Source of the DNA: Myxococcales bacterium
Lineage (GTDB): Bacteria > Myxococcota_A > Polyangia > Haliangiales > Haliangiaceae
Assembly: GCA_043775605.1 (NCBI GenBank)
Contig: JAYVSF010000623.1
Coordinates: forward strand, 1 to 51,019
Reading direction: 5' to 3'
DNA length: 51,019 nt
The position numbers were made by a program, and so were the translations under genes. This document shows, piece after piece, positions 2,594 through 40,300 of this stretch (positions within the stretch are counted from its first letter, which is position 1; each line of letters begins with the position of its first letter). The notes beneath the pieces were generated by a model, which saw nothing but the letters and a program-made list of their open reading frames with translations, did no database searches and had not been told where the DNA came from.

Positions 2594-5500
2594 ATGCCAC
2601 CTGTCGACGAGCCCGCGATCGCGCCGGCCTGGAGCCCGCCGGCCCAGTTCGCCGAGTACCGGCTGATCCGCCGCCTCGGCGAGGGCGGCATGGGCCAGGT
2701 CTGGATCGCGCTCGACACCGTGCTCGATCGCCGGGTGGCGGTGAAGTTCCTCAGCGCGGAGCTCGAGCGCTCGCCCGGCGCCCACGAGCGATTCCTCCTC
2801 GAGGCGCGGGCGGCTGCGCGGCTCCAGCACCCCAACGTCGTGACCGTCTACCGGATCGGCGCGCTCGGCCACCGGCCCTACATCGTGTCGGAGCTGATCG
2901 ACGGCACGCCGCTGTCGCAGCTCGAGCGGCCGCTGTCGTCGGCGCGGGTGCTGGAGCTCGGGCTGGGCCTGGCCCGCGGGCTGGCCGCCGCCCACCGGCG
3001 CGGCGTGCTCCACCGCGACCTCAAGCCGGCCAACGCGATCCTCGCCGACGACGGCCAGGTCAAGCTGCTCGACTTCGGGCTGGCCAAGCTGCTCGAGCGG
3101 CCGGCGCCGGCGACCACCGGCGACCCCGGGCCGCCACCACCGACCGCCATCGCGGTGACGGTGGCGATGGGCTCACCCGGGGCCGACCCCCTCGCGGTCG
3201 GCGGCGCCGCCACCACGCCCTTGCCCGCGCCGGTCGGTACGCCGCCCCCGATCGCCGACGCCATCGCCCTGGCCGCCGACGAGCCGCGCGGGGCGCTGAC
3301 CGGCTTCGGCGTGGTGATGGGCACGCCGTATTACATGCCGCCCGAGACCTGGCTGGGCGAGCCCGCGACCCGCGCCTCCGACGTCTACGCGCTCGGGGTC
3401 GTGCTCTACGAGCTGTGCGCGGGCCGGCCGCCGCACGCCGGCGTCGCCGTCGGCGCGCTGGGTGCGGTGGTGGTGTCGACCGACGTTCCGCCGCTGGCCG
3501 TCGAGGTGCCCGGGGTCGAGCCCCGCCTGGCCGCGGTCATCGATCGTTGCCTGCTGCGCGACCCGGCCGGCCGCTACGCCACCGGCGAGGACCTGCTGCT
3601 GGCGCTCGAGGCGGTCCGCACCCTCGACCTGGTCCGCACCACCACCGGCAATCCCTATCGGGGCCTGTACCGGTTCGAAGCCGACCATCGCGGTGTCTTC
3701 TTCGGCCGGGCCACCGAGATCCGCGCGGTCGTCGAGCGGGTCAAGAACGAGGCGCTGATCGTGGTCGCCGGCGACTCCGGGGTCGGCAAGTCGTCGCTGT
3801 GCCGGGCCGGCGTGCTGCCGACCGTGCTCGACGAGGGCGTCGGCGACGGCCGGGCCTGGACCGCGGTCCGGCTGGTGCCCGGTCAGCGACCGATGACCGC
3901 GCTGGTGGCCGCGCTCGCGCTGCCGACAGCGACCTCGCCCGACTCGACGGTCGTCCTCGGCGGCGTGGCGCCGGACCAGGGCGAGCCGGCCGTGGGGTCG
4001 CCGTGGGGGTCGCACGCGCAACTGGTCCGCCAGGTGGTCGTCGCGCGCCGCGGCCGCGGCCTGATCGTCTTCGTCGATCAGCTCGAGGAGCTGGTGACCC
4101 TGGCCGAGCCGGCCGAGGCCGCCGACGCGGCCCAGCTCCTGGCCGAGCTGGGCGCGGGCGTGCCGGGGATCCGGGTGCTGACCACCGCGCGCTGCGACTT
4201 CCTGACCCGGCTGTCGGGGCTGCCGGCGCTGGGCCCGGCGATCGCCCGCGGGCTGTACCTGCTGCGGCCGATGGCGATCGACGCCCTGCGCGAGGCGGTG
4301 CTCGGCCCAGCGCGGGCCACCGGCGTCGCGTTCGACCCGCCCGCGCTCGTCGACGAGCTGGCCGCCGACGCCGCCGCCGCCGAGGGCGGGCTGCCGCTCC
4401 TGCAGTTCACGCTCGGCGAGCTGTGGGACGCCCACGATCGCGAGCGCCATGCCATCACCCGTGCGGTGGTCGAGCGGGTCGGCGGCACCCGCGGCGCGCT
4501 GACCCGGCACGCCGACGGCGTGGTCGCCGCGCTCTTGCCCGGCCAACGACTGCAAGCCCGGGCCGTGCTCATGCGCCTGGTCTCGGGCGCCGGCATCCGC
4601 GCCCGCCGGACCGAGGCCGAGCTGACCCACGGCGAGCCCGGGGCCGGCGACGCCCTCGCCGCGCTGGTCCGGGGCCGGCTGGTGGCGGCCCAGGCCGGCG
4701 AACCCGAGGCGGTGTTCGAGGTCGCCCACGAGGCCCTGCTGTCCGAATGGCGGACGTTGCGCGACTGGCTCGACGAGCGCGCCGATCAGCGGCTCGCGCT
4801 CGAGCGGCTCGCCGACGCCACCCGCGAGTGGCTGCGGCTCGACCGAACCCGCGAGCTGCTGTGGGGCGAGCGGGCCCTGGCCGACGCCGAGCTGGTGCCG
4901 ACCGCCGAGCTGAGCGCGGATCAGCGCGGGTTTCTGACCGCGTCCCGGCGCGAGCAGCTCCGCCGGCGCTGGCGGGTCCGGATCCTGGCCGCGGCGATCG
5001 TCGCCGCCGCGATCGCCGGCTACCTCGGCTACCGGGCCGTCGACGATCGGGCCCGCGCCCGCAAGGTCGCGAGCTACGTGACCGCCGGCAAGGGCGAGCT
5101 GTCCGCCGCCCGGACCGGCGCCGCCGCGATCGAGGTGCTGCGGGTGCGCGCGTTCGCGACCTTCGACGGCGGCGACCGCGCCGGCGGCGAGACGCTGTGG
5201 ACCGAGGTCATGGCCCAAGGCGATCAGGTCGCGGCCACCTACCGCGCCGCCAGCCGCTCGTTCGAGGCCGCGGTCACCGTCGACCACACCGCCGCGCGCG
5301 CCCGCACGCTCCTGGCCGACACGCTGTACGAGCGCGCGCTGATCGCCGAGCGCGAACGCCACGACTCCGACCGCGACGAGGCCCTCGAGCGCCTGCGCCT
5401 GTACGACGACGGCCACCGGCTGGCGGCCTGGGCCGCGCCCGCGACGGTGACGCTCACCACCACGCCGCCGGGCGCGCAGGTCCGGCTGGCCGCGGTCGTC

Positions 5501-12242: not shown

Positions 12243-12809
12243 ATGTCTGACATGCTCAACGACATCACCACCGACGCTGACGACGGCATGAAGAAGGCCG
12301 TCGAGGCCTTCAAGCGCGACCTGGTCAAGGTCCGCACCGGCCGCGCCACCACCGCGATGCTCGACGGTGTGCGGGTCGACTACTACGGCACGCCGACCCC
12401 GGTGAACCAGGTCGCCAGCGTCACGGTGGTCGACGCCCGCCTCATCACGATCAAGCCGTGGGAGAAGACGATGATCCCGATCATCGACAAGGCGATCCGG
12501 GCCAGCGACCTCGGGCTCAACCCGGTGTCCGACACCGACCTCGTCCGCCTGCCCATCCCGCCGCTCACCGCCGAGCGCCGCCGCGACCTGGTCAAGAGCA
12601 TCAAGAAGATGACCGAGGAGTCCAAGGTCGCCGTCCGCGCCGCCCGCCGCGACGCGATGGAGATGATCAAGGACGCCGAGAAAGACAAGGAGATCACCGA
12701 GGACGAGCGCAAGCTCGGCGAGAAGAAGGTCCAGGACCTGACCGATCGCTTCGTCGCCTCGATCGACGCGCTCGAGCAGGCCAAGGAGAAGGAGATCATG
12801 GAGATTTGA
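12243..12809 (+). CDS. frr: Ribosome recycling factor
   Basis: ORF 12228..12809; ATG 12243 is preceded by GAAGAGGA. MSDMLNDITTDADDGMKKAVEAFKRDLVKVRTGRATTAMLDGVRVDYYGTPTPVNQVASV...LGLNP...IPPLTAERRRDLVK. Confidence 0.95.
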   Translation: MSDMLNDITTDADDGMKKAVEAFKRDLVKVRTGRATTAMLDGVRVDYYGTPTPVNQVASVTVVDARLITIKPWEKTMIPIIDKAIRASDLGLNPVSDTDLVRLPIPPLTAERRRDLVKSIKKMTEESKVAVRAARRDAMEMIKDAEKDKEITEDERKLGEKKVQDLTDRFVASIDALEQAKEKEIMEI

Positions 12810-22872: not shown

Positions 22873-23031
22873 GCCCCCGTGGCGGGGCCGACCGGGCGAC
22901 TGCACGTCCAGCAGAATCAGGAGCTTGAACAGATCGGGCGTCGCTGTGAGCGGGGAGCGTTGCGACGTGTCAACCGACCGACGCCGTCGCGTATCTAGGG
23001 TCTCGAAGTGTACGCGCAAGGCCCCCTACCC

Positions 23032-23634
23032 ATGGCGACCGGAGCCACGTTGACCGTGACCGCCACGGACGCGCGCAGCCGCCTCCTCGCCGAGCTGGCC
23101 GACGGGCCGGCCCGCCGCGGATATCGCATCGCCCAGGACCTGCTAGGCAACCGGGCCGAGGCCGAGGAGGCGGTGCAGGAGTCGCTGGCCCGGGCCTGCG
23201 AGAATCTCGAGGACCTGCGCGAGCCGGGCGCCGCCGCCGGCTGGTTCCTGCGCATCGTCACCACCACCTGCCTGCGCGTCCTGCGCCGGCGGCGGCTGCG
23301 GCGGGCGGTGTTCGGGCGCTGGTTCGGTGGCGAGCAGCCGCGCGAGTCCGACCAGGCAGCGCGCGGGCTGCCAGCTGGCGACGACGTCCCGCTGCACGGC
23401 ACGGTCTCCGATCGCGCCGACCACGCGCTGGGCGCACGCCGCGACATCGCGGCCATGCTCGGCAACCTCGAGTCGCTGCCGGCCAAGCAGCGCGCGGCCC
23501 TGGTGCTGCGCTACGGCCACGACCTGCCGGTGCCCGAGGTGGCGAGCGCGCTCGGCGTCGAGCTGGCGACCGCCAAGACCCACCTGGTCCGCGGGCTGGC
23601 CCGCCTGCGCGAGCTGATGGAGGCGTCGCGATGA
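23032..23634 (+). CDS. ECF-type RNA polymerase sigma-70 factor
   Basis: ORF 23008..23634; ATG 23032. Region 2: [25 protein letters not shown]...[18 protein letters not shown]. Region 4: [51 protein letters not shown]. Confidence 0.85.
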
Positions 23635-24113: not shown

Positions 24114-25252
<1,139 letters not shown>

Positions 25253-25312
25253 CCGCCGGTCACCGAGGGTGTGCGAGCAGCCGCGACCCGCTTCTGCTAT
25301 AGCTCGGCGGCG

Positions 25313-25942
25313 ATGAAGCTGTCCCCGTGGTCGCTGCTGGTCGGCGCGTCGGTCGTCCTCGGGTGCGGCGATCACGCCTCGCCGGATCGGTCGGCGGCGC
25401 CGAGCCGGGTCGCGACCGAGGTGCCCGCGGCCGCGATCGACGCCGGGGTCACCGCGTTGCCGGCCTACGATCCGGCGAGCGGGTTCCACCTCGATCCCGA
25501 CGTCGGCGACGCGCCACGGCCGGCTGGCCCGCGCGGCGCACGCGACCGCAAGATCGTGCAGCTGTTGTTGCGCTCCACGCCGCCGGGGGCGATGGCGGCG
25601 GTCGACGGCGTGCGCGTGGGGCCGACGCCTGTCCTGTGGGAGGGGCTCGCCGCCGGCGACCCGCGCGAGTTCACCTTCGTGCTCCCCGGTCACGCGCTGG
25701 CGCGCTATCAGTTCGTGCCGATCACCGATGGCATCGTCCACGGGACGCTCGCCCGCATTCCCGACGACGAACGGACCCCGGAGCTGCCGGCAACGACGAT
25801 CGCGCCGCCCGCGCGGACCGTACCCCGTCCGCCGCCCCCGCCCACGCCAGCCGTCGCGCCCACGGTCGATGCTGCCGGCCCGACCGAGGCCGTCCCGCTG
25901 ATCGACGGCGGCGCACCGGCGCCGGGCACGCCTCCTGCCTGA
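25313..25942 (+). CDS. PEGA-domain lipoprotein
   Basis: In frame with ORF 25271..25942; ATG 25313 gives MKLSPWSLLVGASVVLGCG. PEGA-like segment: LLLRSTPPGAMAAVDGVRVGPTPVLWEGLAAGDPREFTFVLPGHALARYQFVP. Confidence 0.7.
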   Translation: MKLSPWSLLVGASVVLGCGDHASPDRSAAPSRVATEVPAAAIDAGVTALPAYDPASGFHLDPDVGDAPRPAGPRGARDRKIVQLLLRSTPPGAMAAVDGVRVGPTPVLWEGLAAGDPREFTFVLPGHALARYQFVPITDGIVHGTLARIPDDERTPELPATTIAPPARTVPRPPPPPTPAVAPTVDAAGPTEAVPLIDGGAPAPGTPPA

Positions 25943-27157
25943 TCAGGGCGCGAGCCGGTAGAAGCGGAGGGCCTTGCCACCGCGGGCGAAGCCCAGGTTC
26001 TTCTCGAGGACCCACAGCGTGTCGCCCGACCAGCCCCAGGTCAGCTTCTTCTTCGCCGCGAAGATGCGCGCGCGGCGCACGGCGCGGTTGCCGTCGACCT
26101 CGAACAGATCGAGATACTCGGGGTCGGCCTTCTGCCGGGCGACCGCCGTCGGGTTGACCGGGTCGACCACCAGCGAGAGCCACACCCGGTCGCCGCGCAT
26201 CGCCAGCCGGGCCGTCGCGGGGTCGTAGTTCGCCAGCGGGGGATCGAGCGTGATCGCCGTCGGCGCGCCGTCCCGCCAGAGCTGGAGGTCGCTGCCGTCG
26301 CCGGGGACGTGGACGAAGACCCGCTGACCATGGTGCTCGGTCAGGATGTCGAGGTTGCGTCGGTGCGCGAGCAGGTCAGGGATCGGTGCGTCCTTGATCC
26401 ACTTGCTGGTGACCAGGTCGTACATGGCCTGGGTGTCGGGGGACCGCTGGTCCTCGTGCCGGCGCCAGACCCCGCCGCGAAGCCCGGCGGCCACGGTGTG
26501 ATCGTCGACGAAGTAGTCGACCCGCAGATCGAGCTTGGCGTCGCGGCCATCGGTGCCGATGACCACCTTGCCGCCCAGCTTCGGCACGCGCTTCGCCGTG
26601 AGCAGGTCGAACAGCGCGATCTGGAACTGGTCGCCCTTGGCCGACGCGCTCCGGGTGTACGCCACGACCAGATCCTTGCCGCCGATCTTCCGCAGGGTGA
26701 GGTCGGTGGCGGCCGCGTGGCGCTTGACCACCTTGCCGGTCAGCTCGATCAGGGCGCCGGTCACCGGCCCACCGGCCGGGTCGTCCGCGACCACGAACAG
26801 GCGCGAGCCGAGCAGGTACATCCGCCGGACCGTGGGCATCACCGGCCCCAGGTCCACCTTCGCCTGGCTGACACCATCGGGCCCGAGCACGGTCGCCTCG
26901 GCCAGCGCGGCCCCGTCGGTCACCACCACCGCCAGGCGGGCGCCGTCGCTGGCCATCGGGTCGTCGACGAACCCGCGGTCGGGCACCAGGCTCCCGGTCG
27001 ACATCAGCCCCACCAGTTCGGGGGGCGGCGGCGCCGGCACGATCTTCGTCGGCCCGGGTCGAGGCGGCCCCGGCTGCGCCCCCGCCGGCTCGAGGGCGGC
27101 TGACACCACGAGAATGACGAACAGGGCGGCGACGCACGTGGCAGCTCGAGTGATCAT
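25943..27157 (-). CDS. Hypothetical secreted protein
   Basis: ORF 25943..27202; ATG 27157 gives MITRAATCVAALFVILVVSAALEPAGA. No recognisable domain. Its stop abuts the stop of the PEGA gene (TGATCA at 25940-25945). Confidence 0.6.
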   Translation of the reverse strand: MITRAATCVAALFVILVVSAALEPAGAQPGPPRPGPTKIVPAPPPPELVGLMSTGSLVPDRGFVDDPMASDGARLAVVVTDGAALAEATVLGPDGVSQAKVDLGPVMPTVRRMYLLGSRLFVVADDPAGGPVTGALIELTGKVVKRHAAATDLTLRKIGGKDLVVAYTRSASAKGDQFQIALFDLLTAKRVPKLGGKVVIGTDGRDAKLDLRVDYFVDDHTVAAGLRGGVWRRHEDQRSPDTQAMYDLVTSKWIKDAPIPDLLAHRRNLDILTEHHGQRVFVHVPGDGSDLQLWRDGAPTAITLDPPLANYDPATARLAMRGDRVWLSLVVDPVNPTAVARQKADPEYLDLFEVDGNRAVRRARIFAAKKKLTWGWSGDTLWVLEKNLGFARGGKALRFYRLAP

Positions 27158-27216
27158 GGCAGCACGGCCGGGAGTGCCACGAGGCCGCGCCGCATGCAAC
27201 ACGCCCGAGGCCCGCT

Positions 27217-27317
27217 GGTGTCAGCCACCGCAGCCCCGCCCGGAAGGTGTCAGCCACCGCAGCCCCGCCGGAAGGTGTCAGCCGCCCGAGTCGATCGACG
27301 CGCTGGTGTCAGCCACC
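27217..27317 (+). repeat. Motif cluster A: four phased copies of GGTGTCAGCCACC (one variant, GGTGTCAGCCGCC)
   Basis: Copies at 27217-27229, 27246-27258, 27274-27286 (variant) and 27305-27317, with a period of 28-31 bp. The first two units share the spacer GCAGCCCCGCC(C)GGAA. The last copy contains the psuG stop codon. Confidence 0.9.
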
Positions 27318-28223
27318 CAGACCCGCGAGCGCTACGGCAAGCCCCGCCCCTACCTCTGCGTTGTGACGAGCGAGTGACCGGTTAGCCTGCACCGCCCGCC
27401 CCGCCGTGACCCGCGCCAGCTGCGCAAGGAGGAATGGCGTGAGTCGCTTGCCGGTGATCGCAGCATCAGCGGCGGTGCGGAGGGCTTGCCCGATCGCCGC
27501 CTCGAGTTCGTCCGCGGGAAGTTCGTCCTGCTCGGGAATGGGGTTGCAGACCAGCACGCCGCCCTGCTGGAAGCGCGTCCACCGGTGCTGGCAGACGCGG
27601 GCCAAGTCAGCGAGGTTCTCCACGTGGTGCTCCAGGGCCAACCCCGACCGCCTGCCATAGAACGCCGGGAACTCTCGACATCGATAGCCCACCACCAGGA
27701 CACCGAGCGTCTCGAGCGTCTCCAGCGTGCGAGGAAGGTCGAGGATGGCCTTGGCGCCGGCCGACACCACGGCCAACGGCGCCCGCGCTAGCACGGTGAG
27801 GTCGTGCGAGACGTCGCTCGCGTCCCCGCGATGAACGCCGCCGATGCCGCCAGTCGCGAACACGCGGATCCCTGCGCGGACCGCCAACGTGGCGGTCGCG
27901 CTGACCGTCGTGGCCGCATCTGAACCCCGTGCGGTGTGCATGGCGAGATCGGTTGCGCCTGCCTTGGCGAACGCGGACCCCTGCTGCGCCACCACCGCCA
28001 GCGTGTCGGCATCGAGCCCGATCCGGACCTCGCCACGGACGATCGCGATCGTCGCGGGGACCGCGCCCCCGGCCCGCACGGTTGCCTCGATTTCGCGCGC
28101 GACTGCCAGGTTTTCGGGATACGGCAACCCGTGGGCGATGATCGTAGACTCGAGCGCGACGACCGGCGCGCCGTCGTCGAGCGCCGCCGCGACCTCGGAC
28201 GCGAGCACGAAGGGTGGGAGCAC
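27309..28223 (-). CDS. psuG: Pseudouridine-5'-phosphate glycosidase (IndA/PsuG family)
   Basis: ORF 27309..28253: ...SEVAAALDDGAPVVALESTIIAHGLPYPENLAVAREIE...VFATGGIGGVHRG...DVSHDL..L... The likely start is GTG 28223 (VLPPFVLASEV). The first 10 listed codons are encoded by motif copy B1. Confidence 0.85.
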   Translation of the reverse strand: MLPPFVLASEVAAALDDGAPVVALESTIIAHGLPYPENLAVAREIEATVRAGGAVPATIAIVRGEVRIGLDADTLAVVAQQGSAFAKAGATDLAMHTARGSDAATTVSATATLAVRAGIRVFATGGIGGVHRGDASDVSHDLTVLARAPLAVVSAGAKAILDLPRTLETLETLGVLVVGYRCREFPAFYGRRSGLALEHHVENLADLARVCQHRWTRFQQGGVLVCNPIPEQDELPADELEAAIGQALRTAADAAITGKRLTPFLLAQLARVTAGRAVQANRSLARHNAEVGAGLAVALAGLGG

Positions 28224-28238
28224 TAACGCAGGGTAGCA

Positions 28239-28274
28239 GGTGGCTGACACCACGACGCCCAGGTGGCTGACACC
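28239..28274 (-). repeat. Motif cluster B: two copies of GGTGGCTGACACC (reverse orientation relative to cluster A)
   Basis: Copies at 28239-28251 and 28262-28274, 23 bp apart, each preceded by CA. The second reads CAGGTG-GCTGA-CACCTG, a 6-bp stem with a 5-nt loop. Confidence 0.9.
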
Positions 28275-28341
28275 TGCGCCGCTGGCCGCATCGTGAGGCG
28301 CGTCGACGTCCGCACGCCACTGGCTCCTCGCCTAGCCTGGC

Positions 28342-28356
28342 GTCCGGTATTCGGAC
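28342..28356. promoter_or_regulatory. Dyad GTCCG-gtatt-CGGAC (candidate enhancer/operator) upstream of the RAYT-like gene
   Basis: The CGGAC half starts 56 nt upstream of the -24 GG at 28408. This is the same distance as the equivalent dyad upstream of comM. Confidence 0.45.
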
Positions 28357-28406
28357 ACTCAGGCCTGGCGACGACCTGCGTGTGTTGCAAATCAAGGGCT
28401 TGGGTT

Positions 28407-28422
28407 CGGCACGATCCGTGCT
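28407..28422 (+). promoter_or_regulatory. Candidate sigma-54 promoter cGGCACG-atcc-GTGCT
   Basis: Matches TGGCACG-N4-TTGCW at 11 of the 12 specified positions when the first T is included as a mismatch (10 of 12 strictly). GG-to-GC spacing is canonical. The C of the GC (28421) lies 14 nt before ATG 28435. Preceded by AATCAAGGGCTTG (WATCAANNNNTTR-like) at 28390-28402. Confidence 0.5.
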
Positions 28423-28434
28423 GTGGCGGGCGCC

Positions 28435-29646
28435 ATGGGCCACCCACTTCGCTGGAACCGTACCGACCTCATCTACGAAGTCACGATCGAGACCATCCAG
28501 GGACGCTACCTGCTGCGGCCGAACCGCGAGGTCCGCGACATCATCCTCGGGGTGATCAGCCGGGCCCAGGAGCTGTACCAAGCCATCCGCCTGTACGCGT
28601 TCGTCGTCACCCGCAACAGGTCGACGTTGCTCCTCTCCACCGGCGATGAAGAGCAACTGTCCAGGTTCATGGCCTACGTGCATGGTGAGGTCTCACGCAA
28701 GGTCGGTCGGCTGCTCGACTGGTCGGGCAAGCTGTGGGGTGGTCGATATCGCGCGCTCCCGGTCCTCGACGAGGAGGCGATCACCCAGCGGCTGCGCTTC
28801 GTCCTGTCCCAGGGCGTCGACGAGGGGCTGGTCGCCTCACCGCGACACTGGCCGGGGGCCTCGTGCGTCCCCGCCCTGCTCGGCACGATGAAGCTCGAGG
28901 GAGCGTGGGTCGACCGGGACCGCGAGGCCCGCCTCCGAGGGCTGGGGCTCGATCCTCCCGCCTCCGCGTACGTCCGGCCGTACCGGGTCGTGCTCACGCC
29001 GATCCCGGCGTGGGCGTCACTGCCGCGGACCGAGCTCGTCGCCCGCTACCAGGCCATCATCGAGTCGATCGAGCTCGAGCACCTGGTCATGCGCACCGCG
29101 CCGGTGCTCGACCCGATCGAGCTGCAGCGTCAGGATCCATTCGCCCGACCGGAACGCGCTCCTCGACGACGGCTCGCTCGCTTCTGTCATGCGACCTGCG
29201 CGACCTTGATCGCCGGCTTTCGGACCGCCTACCGACAATTCTGTGCCTCCTTCCGAACGGCCGCGAGCGCGCTCGGTCCTCCCTCGCCGACGAAGGCCGC
29301 GCTGGTCGCGCACTTCCCCGGCGGGAGCAACCCGAGGCCCGACCTGAGCGTGCCGCTGCCGGACGGTGAACTGCCACCATGGTGGAACGAGTCGTTCTCG
29401 ACGCCTCCGCCGTCTTCAGGCGATGAGACCGTCGTCGATGAAGGTGGAATGGAGTCGGGGTGCGAGCCTCCGACGTCGCCGTGGATCCGGCGGGTCGACG
29501 CCCGCGGGCCGCGCGGGTCGAGTCGGAGCCCGGGGCCGACGACCGCCCCCGCGCACCAGCGTCCGCCGAAACCGCGACGCGGCGGCGGGCAGCCGACCCG
29601 CGCCCTGACGCCCGCGCGACCTCCAACCCACGGGCCGCACCCGTGA
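28435..29646 (+). CDS. RAYT / IS200-like (Y1 transposase fold) protein with apparently degenerate catalytic motifs and a Pro/Arg-rich C-terminal tail
   Basis: ORF 28423..29646; ATG 28435. By-eye alignment to REP-associated tyrosine transposases: LIYEVTIETIQGRYLLRP..., IRLYAFVVTRNRSTLLL (where the HUH motif x-H-x-H-LL is expected), GKLWGGRYRALPVLDEEAITQRLRFVLSQGVDEGLVASPRHWPGAS (where RY-I/L-x-x-NP-V..GLV with the catalytic Tyr is expected). Confidence 0.6.
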   Translation: MGHPLRWNRTDLIYEVTIETIQGRYLLRPNREVRDIILGVISRAQELYQAIRLYAFVVTRNRSTLLLSTGDEEQLSRFMAYVHGEVSRKVGRLLDWSGKLWGGRYRALPVLDEEAITQRLRFVLSQGVDEGLVASPRHWPGASCVPALLGTMKLEGAWVDRDREARLRGLGLDPPASAYVRPYRVVLTPIPAWASLPRTELVARYQAIIESIELEHLVMRTAPVLDPIELQRQDPFARPERAPRRRLARFCHATCATLIAGFRTAYRQFCASFRTAASALGPPSPTKAALVAHFPGGSNPRPDLSVPLPDGELPPWWNESFSTPPPSSGDETVVDEGGMESGCEPPTSPWIRRVDARGPRGSSRSPGPTTAPAHQRPPKPRRGGGQPTRALTPARPPTHGPHP

Positions 29647-29649
29647 TCC

Positions 29650-29706
29650 GTCCGGCTGCCGGACATCATCGTCCGAATGCCGGACACATGTGGCCGAATC
29701 TCGGAC
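29650..29706. promoter_or_regulatory. Three phased dyads GTCCG-N5-CGGAC (21-bp period) upstream of comM
   Basis: GTCCGgctgcCGGAC at 29650-29664, GTCCGaatgcCGGAC at 29671-29685, and GGCCGaatctCGGAC at 29692-29706 (one mismatch). Centre-to-centre spacing is 21 bp, so they lie on the same helical face. Confidence 0.5.
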
Positions 29707-29735
29707 GGGGCCACGCAAGATCGAGGAGTTGCGCC

Positions 29736-29751
29736 CGGCACGCCGCGTGCA
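29736..29751 (+). promoter_or_regulatory. Candidate sigma-54 promoter cGGCACG-ccgc-GTGCA
   Basis: Same pattern as at 28407 (CGGCACG-N4-GTGCW). The C of the GC (29750) lies 15 nt before ATG 29765. Preceded by GATCGAGGAGTTG at the position equivalent to AATCAAGGGCTTG in the RAYT-like promoter. Confidence 0.5.
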
Positions 29752-29764
29752 CGCTGGACCCACC

Positions 29765-31354
29765 ATGCTCGCCCGCCTGACCTCTTCAACGCTACGCGGT
29801 ATCGACGCCATCCCGATCGAGGTCGAGGTCGACGTGGTCGGGGGCTTGCCCTCGTACCACGTCGTCGGGATGCCGGGGCCGTCGGTCCGAGAGGGGTCCG
29901 TGCGCATCCGGTCGGCGCTCGAGGCCGTCGGCCAGAGCCTGCCGAGCAAGAAGGTGACGGTCAACCTCGCGCCCGCTGATCTGCCCAAGCCGGGAGCCGG
30001 CTTCGATCTGCCGGTCGCCATCGGCGTGCTGGTCGCCGAGGGCGTGTATCCACATGCGCCGGTCGAGGGTCTGCTCATGGTCGGCGAGCTCGGCCTGGAC
30101 GGCACGATCCGCAAGGTGCGTGGTGCGCTCGCCGCAGCGATGATGGCGCGCGACCTGGGGATGCGCGGCATCCTGCTACCGCGCGCGTCGGCAGAGGAGG
30201 CGGCCGTCGTCGAGGGCCTGGAGGTCTACGGCGTCGGCCACCTGGCCGAGGTCATCGCCGCGCTGGCCGGGCTGGCCGAGCTGCCCCGGGGCACCTCGGC
30301 GCCACGACGTCCCCCTGCTAGCCTCGGCCTCGACCTGGCGGATGTCCGCGGGCAGGCCAGCGCTCGCAGCGCGGTCGAGATCGCGGTCGCCGGCGGTCAC
30401 AACCTCCTGCTGATGGGCCCGCCGGGCATCGGCAAGTCCATGCTGGCGCGGCGCATCCCCACGATCTTGCCGGCCTTGAGCCACGAGGAGGCGCTCGAGG
30501 TGACCAAGATCTACTCGGCGGTCGGGCTCGCCGATGGACTCGTGGTCGACCGCCCCTTTCGAGCCCCTCACCACACGGTCAGCACGGCGGCGCTACTCGG
30601 TGGGGGCTCGGCACCGCGGCCCGGCGAGATCTCGCTCGCCCATCACGGCGTGCTGTTCCTCGACGAGCTCCCCGAGTTTCAGCGCCATGCGCTCGAAGCG
30701 CTGCGCCAGCCGCTCGAGGACCGCCACGTGACGATCGGCCGGGCGCACAGCACGATCCGGCTCCCGGCCAGCTTCCTGCTGGTCGCGGCGGCCAACCCCT
30801 GCCCCTGTGGCTGGGCCGGCTCTCAGCTGCGCGAGTGCGTCTGCTCGGGCACCGCGGTCGAGCGCTACCGGAGTCGCCTCAGCGGGCCGCTGCTCGACCG
30901 CATGGACCTCCAGGTCTCGACGCAGCCGGTGGCGATCAGCGAGCTGCGTAGCCAGCGCCCAGGCGAGTCATCGGCAAGCGTGCGAGCCCGGGTCGAGGAT
31001 GCCCGGGCACGGCAGGCCCGTCGTCTTGCGCCCTTCAGGCTGCGGACCAACGCGGAGATGACTCCGGCGGCGACCCGAGCGACCTGCGCACTCGACGCCG
31101 CGTCGGAAGCGTTTCTCGCCAAGGTGGCCGGCGCGCGCCACAGCATGAGCGCACGGGCGGTCGACCGCATCATCAAGGTGGCGCGGACGATCGCGGACCT
31201 CCAGGGCTGCGACGAGATCGACCACGAGCACGTCGGCGAGGCCGCTGGCTACCGGGCGCTCGAGCGCGAGCCGGCCATTGACCCTCGGCCGTTCATCGCG
31301 GGCCTCCACGGTCGTACGCGCGCCGGCCAGCCCGCGACCGGCGAGCCGGGTTGA
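29765..31354 (+). CDS. comM: YifB/ComM-family Mg-chelatase-like AAA+ ATPase
   Basis: In frame with ORF 29690..31354; ATG 29765 gives [52 protein letters not shown]...[24 protein letters not shown]. Walker A: [13 protein letters not shown]. Also [11 protein letters not shown] and CPCGW...C.C. Confidence 0.9.
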
Positions 31355-31428
31355 CGGGCGGGCATCCGGGCCAGGCCCACCCGCCCTGTGTCTGGTGCAA
31401 ATCGGCGGACGGTCGATAGATCGAGGTG

Positions 31429-32787
31429 ATGTCGGCCCCTCCACCAACGACGCCCGGGCCGGGCCGCGGTTTCGCCCGCCCCGGATGGACATCGTCGCCC
31501 GAGTCGCGAAAGAATCGACGGGTGGAAGTTCCCACCCGACCGAAGGTCGGCTTCGTCCTGTCCGGTGGCGGCTCACGCGGGGCGTACGAGGCTGGGATCA
31601 TCCAGTACTTGCGCGAGGATCTCCCGCGCCGTCTTGGCCACCACGTCCCGATCGACATCGTCACCGGCACCAGCGTCGGGGCGATCAACGCGACCTTCGT
31701 CGCCGCGACCGCTGACGAGCCCGCCACCCAGGGCCAGCGGCTGGTCGCGGCCTGGAGCGCCCTTCGCATCGAGGAGATGATCGGCCTCGGCGCCTGGGAC
31801 GCCCTGCGGGCGCTCAAGATCGTCATGGGTCGGGATGTCCAGCCCGCGCCCGGAAGCTTCCGGTACGGTGGCCTCCTCGACACGAGCGGCCTGGAACGCT
31901 TCGTGATCAAGCACATCCCCTGGCACGGGATGGAGCGCAACCTGCGGAGCCGGGCGATCCACGCCATCGCGGTGTCAGCCACCCACGTCGGATCCGGCCA
32001 CACGGTCGTGTTCGTGTCAGCCGCCGATCCCGTCCCGGTGAGCTGGAGTCGCGACCCGTTCGTCCGCCACCGGGCCGCGCGCATCGGTCCGCGCCACGTC
32101 CTGGCCTCGGCGGCGATTCCGCTGCTGTTCCCGTCGGTCAAGATCGGCGGCGAGTTCTTCACGGACGGCGGGTTGCGGCAGAACACGCCGATGTCGCCGG
32201 CCATCCGGCTGGGCGCGGACAAGATGCTGCTGGTATCGCTGCGCCACGTCGCCGATTCGGAGAGCGCGCAGGTCGAGAAGGAGCGCGTGGAGGCGTCTCC
32301 GCGGCCCCTGTTCCTGGTCGGCAAGGCGCTCAACGCGCTGATGCTCGATCACACCGAGTACGACCTCGATCGTATGCAGCGGGTCAACCACATCCTCGCC
32401 GCCGGCACGGCCGCGTTTGGTCCCGAGTTCGTCGACGTCATGAACCGCGAACTCGCCAAGTTGCGGGGCGCGCCGGTGCGTCCGATCGACGCCTTCCACA
32501 TCCGCCCTTCGGAGGACATCGGTGCGCTGGCCCACGACTTCGTCGCCAGTGGACGGGTCCTGGTCCAGAGCCGCGTGACCCGCCGCCTGCTGCACCGGCT
32601 CGCCGAGAGCGAAGCGCCCCACGAGAACGACCTCCTGTCCTACCTGCTCTTCGACGGCAACTGGGCGGCCGAGCTCATCGCCCTGGGGCGACGTGACGCC
32701 CTGGCAAGGGAGGAGGACTTCGTGCGGTTCTTTACCTCGGAGGGCAACAGCATGCGACGGGAGACTCCGACCGCGGCCCTGCCGTGA
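31429..32787 (+). CDS. Patatin-like phospholipase
   Basis: ORF 31426..32787 (GTG 31426 / ATG 31429). Oxyanion motif [16 protein letters not shown], nucleophile elbow GTSVG, catalytic Asp motif FFTDGGL. Confidence 0.85.
31971..32025 (+). repeat. Intragenic copies of the 13-nt motif inside the patatin gene (GGTGTCAGCCACC exact; GTGTCAGCCGCC variant)
   Basis: 31971-31983 is an exact 13/13 match. 32014-32025 matches the variant seen in cluster A. Both are read as Val-Ser-Ala using the TCA Ser codon. Confidence 0.8.
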
Positions 32788-32789
32788 GC

Positions 32790-32865
32790 GGTGGCTGACA
32801 CCATCGCCCGCGCGTCCGGCGGGTGGCTGACACCATCGCCCGCGCGTCCGCGGGTGGCTGACACC
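32790..32865 (-). repeat. Motif cluster C: three phased copies of GGTGGCTGACACC
   Basis: Copies at 32790-32802, 32822-32834 and 32853-32865. The first two units are near-identical 31-32-bp repeats (GGTGGCTGACACCATCGCCCGCGCGTCCG...). The cluster starts 3 nt after the patatin stop and ends 74 nt before the ABC exporter start. Confidence 0.9.
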
Positions 32866-32938
32866 CTCGGGGCACCAACCGATCGGGTAGCGGGCTGCCG
32901 GGGCGCGGCTCGGCGGCTTCCTGCTAGGCTCTCCCCGC

Positions 32939-34783
32939 GTGAGCGACTCCACCGACCCCGCCGCTGGCGAGCGCGCACCGCTTGGCGTGCTGACCCGGCT
33001 GCTGGCGCTGCTCCGGCCCCACCGCGGCCGCTTCGTCGTGGCCGTGGCGACCCTGTTCACCGCCTCGCTGCTGTCCCTGGCGTATCCAAAGATCGCGGGC
33101 TACGTGGTTGACGCCGGCATGGCCGAGCGGTCGATGGCCGACCTCGACCGCATCGTGCTCATCCTGATCGGCGTCTTCATGATCCACGCCGTGCTCATCT
33201 GGTTCCGCCATTACTCGATGAGCTGGCTGGGCGAGCGGGTGGTGGCCGATCTGCGGTCGATGGCGTTCGATCGGCTGGTCACGCTGCCGCTGGCCTGGTT
33301 CCACGAGCGCCGCACGGGCGAACTGGTCGGCCGGCTGTCATCCGACGTCACCGTGGTCGAGGGGGTGGTCGGCAGCGAGCTGTCCCTGGCGCTCCGCAAC
33401 GCGGTCCAGCTGGTCGGGGGCCTGGTCTTCCTGGTCATCATCGACGCCCGCCTCACCGGCCTGATGCTGGCCGTGGTGCCGCCGCTCACCCTCGGCACCG
33501 TGTACTTCGGCCGCACGATCCGCCGGATGAGCAAGCAGATGCAGGACGCGCTGGCCAAGGTGTCGGGCCAGGCCCAGGAGTCGCTCGGCGCGATCCAGAC
33601 GGTGCAGGCCTTCGTCCGCGAGCGCGACGAGGCCCGCCGCTACCGGGCCGGCGTCGAGACGTCGTTCCAGCAGTCGCTGTCGCTGGCCCGCTCGCGCTCG
33701 TGGTTCTTCGCGTCGGCGACCACCGCCGGCTACATCGCGATCGCGGCGGTGATGTGGCTGGGCGGGCGCGCGGTCATCCGCGACGAGCTGACCCCGGGCG
33801 AGCTGGGCTCGTTCTTCCTGTACACGTTCATGGTCGCCGGCTCGCTGGCCGAGCTGGCCAGCCTGTGGGGCTCGCTCCAGCGCGCGGCCGGCGCCACCGA
33901 GCGGCTGTTCGCGATCATCGACACCGTGCCCACGATCCGCGACCCAAATCACGTGGTCGCCCTGCCCGCCGGCGGTGGCGCGCTCCGCTTCGAAGCGGTC
34001 GACTTCGCCTATCCGTCGCGCCTCGATCATCCGGTGCTGCGCGGCTTCGACCTGGCCATCGCGCCCGGCGAGGTGGTGGCGCTGGTCGGGCCGTCGGGCA
34101 CCGGCAAGACCACCGTGCTCCAGCTCCTGCTCCGCTTCTTCGACGTCGATCGCGGCCGGGTCACGCTCGAGGGCATCGACGTCCGCACGCTCGCGCTCGC
34201 CGACCTCCGGCGCGCGACCGCGATGGTGGCCCAGGAGCCGGTGCTGTTCGCCGGCACGCTGCGCGACAACATCGCGTACGCCTGCGACGACGCCACCGAC
34301 GCCGCGGTCGAGCAGGCCGCGCGCGACGCCAACGCCCACGACTTCATCGCCTCGTTCCCCGAGGGCTACCGCACGGTGATCGGCGAGCGCGGGGTCAAGC
34401 TGTCCGGTGGCCAGAAGCAGCGCATCGCGATCGCGCGGGCCCTGCTGGTCGATCCGCGGGTCCTGATCCTCGACGAGGCGACCAGCAACCTCGACGCCGG
34501 CAGCGAGGCCGTGGTGCAGGAGGCTCTGGCCCGGCTGATGCGCGGCCGCACGACGCTGGTGGTCGCCCACCGATTGTCGACAGTACGCGACGCCGATCGC
34601 ATCGTGGTCCTCGACGCCGGCCGGGTCGCGGAGGTCGGCCAGCACGGCGAGCTGATGGCCCGCGGCGGCCTCTACCGCCGACTGGTCGAGCATCAGGTGA
34701 TCAGCGACGAGCCCGCGCCCTCGGACAGCCCGGCACCGGCCGAGCTCGTCGAGCCGCTGATGGTGGCGCCGGCCGGATCGTGA
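32939..34783 (+). CDS. ABC transporter, fused permease/ATPase (MsbA/ABCB-type exporter)
   Basis: ORF 32939..34783 (GTG). Six-TM N-terminal half. Walker A GPSGTGKTT, signature LSGGQKQRIAIARAL, Walker B ILILDEATSNLD. Confidence 0.9.
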   Translation: MSDSTDPAAGERAPLGVLTRLLALLRPHRGRFVVAVATLFTASLLSLAYPKIAGYVVDAGMAERSMADLDRIVLILIGVFMIHAVLIWFRHYSMSWLGERVVADLRSMAFDRLVTLPLAWFHERRTGELVGRLSSDVTVVEGVVGSELSLALRNAVQLVGGLVFLVIIDARLTGLMLAVVPPLTLGTVYFGRTIRRMSKQMQDALAKVSGQAQESLGAIQTVQAFVRERDEARRYRAGVETSFQQSLSLARSRSWFFASATTAGYIAIAAVMWLGGRAVIRDELTPGELGSFFLYTFMVAGSLAELASLWGSLQRAAGATERLFAIIDTVPTIRDPNHVVALPAGGGALRFEAVDFAYPSRLDHPVLRGFDLAIAPGEVVALVGPSGTGKTTVLQLLLRFFDVDRGRVTLEGIDVRTLALADLRRATAMVAQEPVLFAGTLRDNIAYACDDATDAAVEQAARDANAHDFIASFPEGYRTVIGERGVKLSGGQKQRIAIARALLVDPRVLILDEATSNLDAGSEAVVQEALARLMRGRTTLVVAHRLSTVRDADRIVVLDAGRVAEVGQHGELMARGGLYRRLVEHQVISDEPAPSDSPAPAELVEPLMVAPAGS

Positions 34784-37351: not shown

Positions 37352-40300
37352 TCAGTTCGCCTGGAAGACCATGCGCTCCCAGCCCGGGGCACCGTACAGG
37401 CTATCCGTCGCGCCGCAGCGCCAGCCGGGGAGGAGCCCACCAGCGCTGGCCGTCCAGCACAGCCGCTGATCGGCGGTTCCTCCGGGGTTGCCGTCGAACG
37501 AGCTGTCGACAGTGTCACAGCTCATCAGCGAGACGGGTGCCCCGCTCGGCGCGAAGCCCCAGGACCAGTTGTCGCTGTAGTACCAGCCGACGCCGTTGGC
37601 ATCGTGGGGAAGGCTGTCGCGGCCGGTGAAGTGGAACACGTCGTCCCTGGGCGCGTAGGCGAGCACGGAGAGGTCGGGTGAGCCGTTCGGCCGGCAGGCC
37701 AGCATGAGGTTGTGCCCGCTGCACGCGGCGCGGATCTCCGAGAGCGGGGCGAACTCGTCGGCGTAGGTGTCGCTGAAGCACTGCGTCCAGCCGATCAGGT
37801 CGGCGACCGGCACATTGGTCCTGACGCCCGAGAACGAGTAGCGCGGCACGCAGGCTCCCACCGCGCAGGTCGGTGCCTGATCGCCGCACACGAACCCGCA
37901 CGAGCCGCAGTTGTTCGCGTCGGTGGCAGTCAGCTTGCAGCCGCAACCACACCCGTCGCTGTCGTCGCTGTTCCCGTCATCGCACTGCTCGTCGGGGGTG
38001 ACCACGCCGTCGCCGCAGACCTCCTGTCGGCAATCCAGCGTGCAGCCATCGCCGTTGACGTAGTTGCCGTCGTCGCAGGTCTCGCCGATCGCCGCCTGCA
38101 CGAGCTGGTCGCCGCAGAACTCGGCCACGCAGGTCGCCGAACATCCATCGCCGGACAGCGTGTTGCCGTCATCGCACCCCTCGCTGTTCTCCTGTCGGCC
38201 GTTGCCGCAGATCTCGAGATGGCACAGGTCGTCGCAGCCGTCACCGCGCTCGCGGTTGCCGTCGTCGCACTCCTCGCCGGCCCCCGCCTGGAGCACCCAG
38301 TTCCCGCAGATCTCCTCGCGGCAGGCGCTGTCGCAGCCATCACCGTCGAGCGTGTTGCCATCGTCGCAACCCTCACGGGCCTCGACGCGGCGGTTTCCGC
38401 AGACCTCGGCGAGGCAGGTCGGGCCGCAGCCATCACCCCCAAGGAGGTTGCCGTCGTCGCACTCCTCGAGAACGTCGAGCCGGCTGTTGCCACAGGCCTC
38501 GACGAGGCACGACGCGCTGCAGCCGTCGCCGGCGCGGCTATTGCCGTCGTCGCACGCCTCGTCGGGGTCGACGAGCGCGTTGCCACAAGCCTCGAACAGG
38601 CACGTCGGACCGCAGCCATCGCCCGCCGAGGTGTTGCCATCGTCGCACTGCTCGTCGCCGCGCTGGAACGGGGTCGACACTGCCACACCACCGACCAGCG
38701 CGCCGCCGCAGAGGTCGGGGTTGCGGGTCTCGGCGTCGCCGCCGCCGCCAGCGTCGACGAGCACGATGTCCCTCGACCCGGCGGCGTCGGTCACCGTCAG
38801 CACCGCCCACGACACCAGCGCCACCGAGGTGAAGTCCACCGTGTTCAGGCCGGCGCGAATGGCCGCGGCCTCGGCGGCAGTCGAGACGTAGGTCCGCACA
38901 CCCGGCGTGCAACCGCAGTCGTACGGCACGACCTCGGTGTAGACGCGGACGCCGTTGATGTCGAGCCGGACCTCGACGCCAAAGGGGGCGCAGGTCGTGG
39001 CCAGCCAGGTCAGCGTGAAGGACTGCGTCGGCGGCGCGGCCTCGACGCGCCCGTCACCGCAGGTCGGGTGGACGCAGCCCGCCAGGCCTGGGGCACAGTG
39101 GTCGAGATCGGTCTCGCACGCCCCGCCGCCGAAGCCCGCGGTGCAGGCGCAGGTGAAGCTGTTGACGCCGTCGACGCACTGGCCGCCGTGCTGGCAGGGG
39201 CTGGCGGCGCAGTCGTCGACGTCGATCTCGCAGTGGCCGCCGGTGAAGCCGGGAGCGCACGCGCAGGTGTAGCCGAGCACGGCGTCATGGCAGGTGCCGC
39301 CGCCAAGGCAGGCGTCGACGATGCAGTCGTCGAGGTCGACGTCGCACTGGCCACCGCCGAACCCAGGCGCGCACGAGCAGGTGTAGCCGGCGACGCCGTC
39401 GTTGCAGGTCGCGCCGTTGTGGCAGGGGTTGCCGACGCAGTCATCGACGTTGATCTGACAGTTGCCGCCGGCGAAGCCGGGAACGCACGCACAGGCGTAG
39501 CCGGCGACGCCGTCGATGCAGGTCGCGCCGTTCTGGCAAGGGGCGCCGGCGCAGTCGTCGATCTCGATCTGGCAGTCGGCGCCGCCGTAGCCGGCCGCGC
39601 AGGCGCACGTGTGATCGGCGACGCCGTCGGTGCAGACGCCACCGTGCTGGCAGGGGTTGGGCGCGCAGTCGTTGACGTTGGTCTGGCAGTCGAGCCCGGC
39701 GTAGCCGGCCCCACAAGTGCAGGTGTAGCCGGCGACGCCGTCAGCGCAGGTGCCGTGCTGGCAGGGGTTGGGCGCGCAGTCGTCGACGTCGGTCTGGCAC
39801 GCGTTACCGCCGTAGCCCGCCGGGCATTCGCAGGTGAAGCCGTCGGCGGCGTTGGCGCAGGTGCCGCCGTGCTGGCACGGGTTCGGGCGGCAGTGGTCGT
39901 CGGGGGTCGTGTACGTGATCCGCAGCGCCGGGCGCTGGTTGACCGGTTGCTGCTCGCTGCTGACGATGAGGGTGTGGGCCCGGCCCTGGGTCTCGACGAG
40001 CAACCCGTAGTTGGGTCGGGTACCGTTGACCCAGGACTGGACCAGCGACTTGAGGTCCACGGTCTTGTACGAGTTGCGGTTGGACAGGGCGATGACGCCG
40101 GCGACCGCGGGGTCGAACTGCTGGCTGAAGCTCGCGTAGGTCACGGTGCGCTCGGTCCACGCGTGGGTGACCCTGTGGAGCTTGAGCGGCGCGATCGGGT
40201 GACCTTCGTGATCGCCGTCGTCGCAGTCGTCATCGTCCTCGTCGTCGCCGCCGTTGACGTACAGCGTCAAGGCCGCGCTGGTGAGGACCGCGTTGGCCGG

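Follow-up and report, generated by a model that had tools for sequence, protein, structure and literature searches.

Head-to-tail arrays of a 13-nucleotide box around a RAYT-like gene without catalytic residues in a Myxococcales bacterium

Repetitive extragenic palindromic (REP) sequences and the REP-associated tyrosine transposases (RAYTs) are the textbook example of a domesticated bacterial transposase, the benefit to the host being obscure. Here, we report a 13-nt box (GGTGTCAGCCACC on one strand, GGTGGCTGACACC on the other) that recurs in head-to-tail arrays around a RAYT-like gene of a Myxococcales bacterium (GenBank assembly GCA_043775605.1). The window is the whole stretch analyzed, 51,019 nt of contig JAYVSF010000623.1 (51 kb; G+C content, ~72%). 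Kofleriaceae (Myxococcota) carry a short dispersed repeat that has the 13-mer as its invariant core, and the RAYT-like genes derive from IS200-type Y1-HUH transposases. On balance, we lean toward viewing the 13-mer as a recognition box of RAYT origin that is retained in arrays of putative binding sites.

Locus and arrays

The genes of the block and the features discussed below are listed in Table 1. Nine intergenic copies of the 13-mer fall in three arrays (A, four copies; B, two; C, three), one of them (27274) with a single mismatch. The initial annotation had described these nine copies and three clusters, and a sequence search of the window confirmed every coordinate, together with an exact copy inside coding sequence (CDS) at 31971 and a 15-nt match (TGGCTGACACCATCG) at 26865-26879. 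Spacings are 29, 28, and 31 nt in array A, 23 nt in array B, and 32 and 31 nt in array C, and Tandem Repeats Finder independently called array A at 27217-27283 (period 29, 97% matches) and array C at 32790-32869 (period 32, 95%). The minus strand of array A reads GGTGGCTGACACC and points to the gene start at 27157; its final copy (27305) overlaps the psuG stop codon (27309-27311). Array C occupies the gap that separates the end of the patatin gene (32787) from the first codon of the ABC-transporter gene (32939), and arrays A and C are mutually inverted around a 5.5-kb block. Copies end 60 to 160 nt ahead of start codons.

Allowing up to two mismatches, the window held 19 matches, against 2.12 ± 1.75 in dinucleotide-preserving shuffles, none of which (0/100) reached 19. 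All exact 13-mers fell within 8 kb, the 10-mer GGCTGACACC occurred exactly 13 times, always inside 24673-32865, and the rest of the window (~43 kb) had no exact copy of either word. The motif had been reported as unseen in the rest of the window, which stands for exact copies, but two 1-mismatch CDS copies (24670-24682 and 27095-27107) had been overlooked; likewise, a variant placed at 32014 exists, but at 32013-32025 and with two mismatches. The statement that the motif fills most gaps around the RAYT-like gene stands to the extent of three of the five gaps of the gene block; a fourth gap (29646-29765) holds a different palindrome.

Table 1. Genes, arrays, palindromes, and coding-sequence copies of the 13-mer in the window
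Feature	Position	Strand	Description
Uncharacterized secreted protein	25943-27157	-	Window gene call
PsuG / Indigoidine_A	27309-28226	-	Window gene call
RAYT-like gene, 403 aa	28435-29646	+	RAYT fold; Pro/Arg-rich disordered tail
comM / YifB	29765-31354	+	Window gene call
Patatin	31426-32787	+	Window gene call
MsbA-like ABC transporter	32939-34783	+	Window gene call
Array A, 4 head-to-tail copies	27217..27317	-	27217, 27246, and 27305 exact, 27274 with 1 mismatch; plus strand reads GGTGTCAGCCACC
Array B, 2 exact copies 23 nt apart	28239..28274	+	Divergent psuG/RAYT-like gap; starts 28239 and 28262; GGTGGCTGACACC
Array C, 3 exact copies in 31-32-nt units	32790..32865	+	Starts 32790, 32822, and 32853; GGTGGCTGACACC
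Palindrome GTCCGGTATTCGGAC, core of longer hairpin 28329-28370	28342..28356	+	~80 nt upstream of RAYT-like start; hairpin z = -4.2
Three tandem palindromes (21-nt period) just past RAYT-like stop	29650..29706	+	GTCCGGCTGCCGGAC, GTCCGAATGCCGGAC, and degenerate GGCCGAATCTCGGAC
Exact copy in patatin CDS	31971..31983	-	VSAT = GTG TCA GCC ACC
2-mismatch copy in patatin CDS	32013..32025	-	FVSAA: GTG TCA GCC GCC
2-mismatch copy in 25943-27157(-) CDS	26863..26875	+	Coding strand DGVSQ = GAT GGT GTC AGC CAG
1-mismatch copy in signal-peptide codons (VVSAA) of 25943-27157(-) CDS	27095..27107	+	Exact copy at same place in L053, L027, and L135

Conservation in related genomes

Genomes (one per species) were scanned for two exact 13-mers 5 to 35 nt apart, which returned 47 loci, 34 of them from eight Kofleriaceae/Myxococcales metagenome-assembled genomes (MAGs), in which a single array can reach 14 copies. 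The best-sampled MAGs had 8 to 11 loci each, a count that covers paired exact copies only. With arrays in eight related MAGs and in a few genomes of other phyla, the motif is not private to this locus.

Seven further contigs, DNA sequence being available for six, keep the order unk(-) psuG(-) / RAYT-like comM patatin ABC, and 13-mer placement was compared in the window and in L027/L009, L052, L053, L054, L135, and L136. The orthologous loci share the gaps in which 13-mers stand (psuG/RAYT, patatin/ABC, and usually unk/psuG), with 1 to 17 copies per shared gap and spacers that are unrelated between loci. The gap of array A holds six copies in L135 and one each in L053 and L054. That of array B holds eight in L027, two each in L135, L054, and L136, one exact copy and two variants in L053, and two variants in L052; that of array C holds seven in L053, at least 17 in L009 plus L044 (one array, broken by the assembly), at least three in L054, and three variants in L136. 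Most relatives carry an extra array upstream of an extracytoplasmic function (ECF) sigma gene belonging to this block (L027 8-256, L136 24-135, L052 2046-2241, and L054 17-46); the window has no array upstream of its ECF sigma homolog at 22999-23634. Spacers are near-identical inside one array and specific to each array, which makes growth by local tandem duplication probable. Across the eight orthologous loci, counting the window, the surroundings diverge while the promoter-proximal gaps, and some codon positions, each retain one copy or more.

L025 (CALKVT010000119.1, 460-7600) and L047 (5943-6231) contain a local variant, GGTGGGTGACACC, that is repeated many times within 8 kb. Several of its copies apparently lie within coding sequence as V-G-D-T, and the recurrence suggests islands with their own sub-variant. 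L028 (6135-6567) and L017 (5183-5919), two contigs of one MAG, have a common ~35-nt unit, ATTGGTCAGGCCAC-TTCG-GGTGGCTGACACC, in which the 13-mer and an imperfect inverted copy of it pair across a TTCG loop; this was the sole unit seen to be common to different loci.

Copies inside coding sequence are conserved in position as well, 13-mers being found at matching codons of the orthologous loci. The VSAT copy of the patatin gene has identical codons in L009 and L054 and a motif at the matching place in L136, other codons being used in L053 and L004, and the FVSAA copy has identical codons in L009 and L053. In the gene for the secreted protein, GGT GTC AGC CA of the DGVSQ copy is kept in all five orthologs compared. 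The conserved copies run antisense to the genes that contain them and use uncommon codons (TCA, 7%; GGT, 12% of Gly; GAT, 23% of Asp codon family), and synonymous sites next to them vary freely. Together, the codon choice and the variable neighboring sites suggest constraint at the nucleotide level, in a comparison that treats related loci as independent.

Elsewhere in the window, the 1-mismatch copy at 24670-24682 sits in the middle of a run of short coding repeats at 24610-24731 (CGACGATGG, 3.7 copies; GACGTC, 4.2 copies), to which weak two-strand noise matches in Rfam were also obtained. A perfect palindrome, GGTGTCCGACACC, lies inside a CDS at 12524-12536, and a CDS at 4741-4755 contains a 1-mismatch copy of the RAYT-flank hairpin (GTCCGAATGGCGGAC). 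The in-CDS copies at 4741, 12524, and 24670 are probably due to chance. A large minus-strand open reading frame (ORF) contains long tandem repeats at 38332-38648 (93 nt, 3.4 copies) and 39123-39899 (114 nt, 6.8 copies), probably a repeated protein domain.

Architecture of the arrays

Among neighboring copies at most 100 nt apart, 179 pairs had the same orientation and 5 the opposite one, making the arrays head-to-tail. Spacing was continuous from 17 to 87 nt, with peaks that only mirror individual arrays and no helical phasing. The conserved core measures only 13 nt with arms of 4 bp; it is a near-palindrome, of which GGTGTCTGACACC is the perfect form. No compensatory change was found in the GGTG/CACC arms (the 3-11 pair was CA in 17 cases, TG in 9, and CG in 2), arrays A and B folded as single strands no better than shuffles (z = -0.8 and -1.1), and longer stems around the 13-mer were confined to some other taxa. 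The 179:5 direct bias, the absence of compensatory change, and the weak folding of arrays A and B together favor recognition, by a putative binder, of sequence rather than of a stem.

By GC3-based gene calls (GC3, G+C content at third codon positions), GGTGGCTGACACC has the same sense as the downstream gene in 10 co-directional gene pairs and the opposite sense in 3; of the arrays with one callable flank, 6 point to a gene start and 1 to a gene end. Ten arrays are located between divergently oriented genes, and three between convergent ones. No common function was found among genes downstream of arrays, nor any neighboring protein shared across array loci beyond synteny. Rfam 15 gave no match in the window at gathering score and only chance-level matches at E ≤10, and scans for promoter and terminator consensus sequences found nothing at the arrays; CTGACA in the box was considered as a -35 element and rejected, as there is no -10 element at 16 to 18 nt. 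Viral contigs had no arrays. Full-text literature searches returned only an unrelated human primer for the exact strings and one unrelated mention for DUF1568. To our knowledge, none of Chi, matS, DnaA boxes, the MrpC site (GTGTC-N8-GACAC), sigma-54 promoters, and the Tn3 inverted repeat fits the box.

The RAYT-like protein and its hairpins

The 403-aa product scored 35.7 bits against the NCBIfam RAYT model, for which the cut-off is 80. Its AlphaFold (AF2) model has a predicted local distance difference test (pLDDT) score of >90 over residues 11 to 220, and the best PDB match of this model is 4ER8, the E. coli RAYT with a REP hairpin (E = 1.4e-6; target-normalized template modeling score, 0.70). 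An extra well-folded domain spans approximately residues 150 to 290, and the protein also has a disordered Pro/Arg-rich tail. Homologs are rare, with 28 among 5.8 billion proteins.

In the window protein and 14 relatives (55 to 79% identical), the HUH motif is replaced throughout (15/15), T-R-N-R-S-T-L standing for L-S-N-H-x-H-L, and the catalytic Tyr of RLRYVL is replaced in 14 of the 15, the window protein having Phe (RLRFVL). Thirteen more distant homologs and the gene of L047 keep the Tyr, and both histidines are kept except in P0021 and P0027. Profile comparison (hhalign 95.6%, E = 1e-8) aligned the HUH and Tyr columns with those of a Planctomycete family, so that the two are homologous, and the HUH column also aligned with the HUH of ISDra2 TnpA. 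With both the HUH motif and the Tyr lost, the window protein would be incapable of HUH chemistry; judged from its residues, it is a catalytically dead RAYT, yet conserved and syntenic.

The gene has palindromes of its own. That upstream of the start (Table 1) is present in every family member examined except L049/L050, including the intact L047, L048, and L051, and those past the stop recur in one to three copies at the matching place in L027, L052, L053, L054, L135, and L136. GTCCG-N5-CGGACA palindromes, distinct from the 13-mer, bracket the gene in every dead ortholog. By analogy, this hairpin and not the 13-mer is the closest counterpart of a cognate REP for the window protein family, and GTCCG-N5-CGGACA hairpins (GTCCGGTATTCGGACA) instead of the box may be the primary ligand of the dead RAYT. 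A further short palindrome, GCACG-ATC-CGTGC (28395-28434), lies directly upstream of the RAYT-like start and is recognizable in orthologs. IS200 offers a precedent for a palindrome that hides a ribosome site, and GCACG-ATC-CGTGC may sequester one in the same way.

Association with RAYT-like genes in two phyla

A Pirellulales MAG (L007 and L016) contains two 93%-identical, 1.5-kb RAYT-like elements, the protein of which keeps both the HUH motif (SNHVHSIL) and the Tyr (AMYVDLNPV). Both elements end in inverted modules, in which an imperfect hairpin has the exact 13-mer as its tip and a variant, GGTGGATGGCACC, lies further out. The protein belongs to a very large Planctomycete family (>8000 matches, annotated IS200-like, DUF1568, or RayT). 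At 53 metagenomic loci of this family, GGTGYCANCCACC (≤1 mismatch) occurred in the sense orientation within 160 nt upstream in 14 cases and antisense in 1, and six inverted copies lay just downstream. The usual Planctomycete sister box upstream of the gene, GGTGCCAYCCACC, is two substitutions away from the window word.

In Kofleriaceae, the intact homolog of L047 has two exact 13-mers upstream, in the Planctomycete sense, followed by the family hairpin; L011 and L038 have composite units made of the 13-mer and the RAYT-family hairpin GTCCGGATCCCGGACAC. A distant homolog in L049 is flanked by inverted GGTGCCACCCC boxes. Four of the 47 array-selected loci contain a RAYT-like gene; we roughly estimate the chance expectation to be far below one. 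As compared here, the box belongs to a family of approximately GGTG-N-CA-N-CCACC, read on the other strand, that appears to accompany RAYT-like genes of two phyla.

Arrays of the exact word or of GGTGTCTGACACC were also found in Treponema, Pirellulales, Patescibacteria, Sulfurimonas, Prevotella, Mycolicibacterium palauense, Acidimicrobiales, Thermoleophilia, and Thermoanaerobaculia. Treponema sp. Gx481_bin55 has arrays on four contigs (L023, L033, L041, and L045) with up to 19 copies. These loci and others of distant phyla (L008, L026, L029, L022, L014, L034, and L039) range in G+C content from 28 to 71% and are head-to-tail with unrelated spacers. Tandem duplication by chance could account for some of the distant cases with two copies but not for those that span several contigs.

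Interpretation

We propose that the box is a sequence-specific protein-recognition site, which would have been inherited from a RAYT/REP-type system and amplified by local duplication into head-to-tail arrays. In this lineage, it would no longer be mobilized from the window locus, because the local protein cannot cleave DNA, and the arrays would be retained as binding sites just upstream of transcription units. The likeliest reader would be the conserved dead RAYT, or an intact paralog where present; it would bind the DNA as a duplex or while transiently single-stranded, and so influence transcription or the local organization of DNA. The more specific idea that the HUH/Tyr-less RAYT, in fixed synteny at the related loci examined, was exapted as the reader of the inherited 13-nt box arrays, which would stand close ahead of adjacent transcription units and in further genomic islands, turning a REP/RAYT pair into a regulatory or DNA-organizing system, is tentative, and we hold it to be possible rather than probable.

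Several observations weigh against a RAYT-derived recognition box. Three intact homologs from other taxa (L048, L049/50, and L051) lack the 13-mer over a distance of 12 kb, so the box is not universal to the window protein family. The upstream boxes in the window and its orthologs face the opposite way to those of L047 and the Planctomycetes, and the immediate flanks of the window gene are the other palindrome, GTCCG-N5-CGGACA. The related MAG L042 (CALKVT) has arrays upstream of comM with no RAYT-like gene there. Most array loci, among them those of Treponema, Patescibacteria, Sulfurimonas, and other distant phyla (Prevotella, Mycolicibacterium, Acidimicrobiales, Thermoleophilia, and Thermoanaerobaculia), lack a RAYT-like ORF within 8 kb. 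The gene calls beneath the orientation test are crude, and the reader of the box, whether the dead RAYT, an intact paralog, or an unrelated factor, is putative only.

The arrays could alternatively be double-stranded operator- or enhancer-like sites for an ordinary host regulator, the RAYT-like neighbors being coincidental. Regulator-binding arrays were among the readings offered by the initial annotation; they are compatible with the data and partly favored by the positional conservation across species, the binder being putative. The near-palindromic 13-mer with its perfect form GGTGTCTGACACC, the distance of 60 to 160 nt to start codons, the retention of at least one copy per gap across species while spacers are not kept, and the absent stem covariation would all suit such sites. 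We nevertheless regard a host regulator with coincidental RAYT-like neighbors as unlikely, since three independent RAYT co-locations (the window lineage, L047, and the Pirellulales ends) and a Planctomycete sister box are hardly chance; moreover, the genes downstream of arrays are functionally diverse, the spacing of 17 to 87 nt lacks helical phasing, and a lineage-specific regulator leaves the exact word in unrelated phyla unexplained.

REP-like elements tied to the RAYT-like gene were another early reading, and one that is correct in kind, since the box family marks RAYT-like genes in two phyla and the 13-mer stands upstream of the intact Kofleriaceae homolog; the supposed classical signature of REPs and bacterial interspersed mosaic elements (BIMEs) did not hold up, with copies head-to-tail, no stem evidence, a neighbor without HUH and Tyr, and flanks formed by another hairpin. 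In its stronger form, the arrays would be still-mobile DNA resembling REPs or REP doublets forming hairpins (REPINs), spread in trans by an intact RAYT paralog and without host function. At least one array-bearing MAG (L047) does have an intact homolog, L017 and L028 of one MAG have their ~35-nt unit in common, and L011 and L038 join the 13-mer to GTCCGGATCCCGGACAC. Array-specific spacers, however, suggest growth that is mostly local and not by transposition; copies persist at orthologous sites and codons although the RAYT-like proteins are only 55 to 79% identical, they are direct and not inverted doublets, and those in the window are confined to one 8-kb block. Continued mobility is for these reasons distinctly unlikely.

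A role in RNA seems quite improbable. The box would form GGUG-GCUGA-CACC hairpins in 5' leaders or inter-cistronic RNA and affect stability, processing, or protein sequestration, as might be read from arrays that mostly run in the sense of the downstream gene, from the longer hairpin with a TTCG loop in the L028 and L017 unit, and from the 13-mer as the tip of a longer stem in L014, L007, and L034. Against this stand arms of 4 bp without compensatory changes, conserved in-CDS copies antisense to host genes, the absence of an Rfam match, and arrays A and B folding no better than shuffles. The suggestion of a DNA uptake signal with a link to comM can be set aside as very nearly untenable, as adjacency to comM alone favors it and follows from conserved synteny, whereas the other ~43 kb of the window have no exact copy, the copies form tandem arrays and not dispersed single sites, their orientation is tied to flanking genes, and the comM gene of L004 (another array-bearing MAG) has no RAYT-like neighbor and only a distal array.

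Comparison with known systems

The closest comparators of a RAYT-derived box are E. coli TnpA_REP/YafM (PDB 4ER8) and the Pseudomonas REPIN-RAYT systems (PMC3116915 and PMC5581495). As in these, a short, over-represented, mainly extragenic repeat family is found together with a single-copy, vertically inherited RAYT-fold gene that has repeats in its flanks, and the repeats are kept at orthologous places; 4ER8 is the best structural match of the window protein, and in Pirellulales the box forms inverted ends on both sides of a RAYT-like gene. The differences are that the box has 13 nt and 4-bp arms instead of an imperfect-palindrome stem-loop of ~20 to 40 nt, that copies are head-to-tail (179:5) instead of inverted doublets or alternating BIMEs, that the local RAYT lacks HUH and Tyr, and that the window gene is bracketed by a second, distinct palindrome. 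The 13-mers of the psuG/RAYT-like gap (28239 and 28262) lie upstream of the window gene only, and arrays A and C stand inverted on either side of the 5.5-kb block. There are also apparently tens of arrays per genome (a lower-bound impression and not a census) compared with hundreds of REPs. On account of the palindrome, the inverted pairing, and the catalytic residues, we do not class the system as a REP/BIME-RAYT member.

With IS200/IS605 elements (IS608 and ISDra2), the family has in common the Y1-HUH fold, hairpins near both gene ends, and Planctomycete relatives that occur in multiple copies (one MAG has a pair that is 93% identical, and there are >8000 homologs). It differs in proteins of 300 to 400 aa with an extra conserved domain, in ends that bear a conserved inverted sequence box, and in a window copy that appears catalytically dead and is fixed in synteny. 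DNA uptake sequences (USS/DUS) differ in their dense, roughly even spread over the genome, genes included, whereas the 13 exact 10-mers of the window are all confined to 24673-32865.

Tandem binding-site arrays are familiar from F-plasmid sopC and from plasmid iterons, an analogy of form only. Both consist of head-to-tail units of 20 to 70 bp with one near-palindromic site each, and the gene cluster here includes a candidate binder gene; the present arrays differ in being chromosomal and in many gaps, with no partition or replication genes nearby and a putative binder.

REPs described so far are species-specific, which made it unexpected that RAYT-like genes as remote from each other as those of Myxococcota and Planctomycetota should be accompanied by one 13-nt box, in its exact form or with two bases changed. 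Current REP/REPIN finders are built on inverted doublets, and the head-to-tail architecture would escape them. Should the dead RAYT be an exapted reader, the cross-phylum box would represent an ancient code for recognition by this branch of RAYTs.

TldR proteins, nuclease-dead TnpB derivatives repurposed as repressors, are a conceptual analog. Here too, a transposon-derived protein has lost its catalytic residues, is conserved, and could by analogy have kept nucleic-acid recognition; the fold here is HUH and not RuvC, and no guide RNA is evident. A RAYT-fold protein without the chemistry, still conserved among the boxes of its family, would be a natural separation of binding from cutting, and the dead RAYT and its boxes make a testable candidate for a non-catalytic role of RAYT/REP systems.

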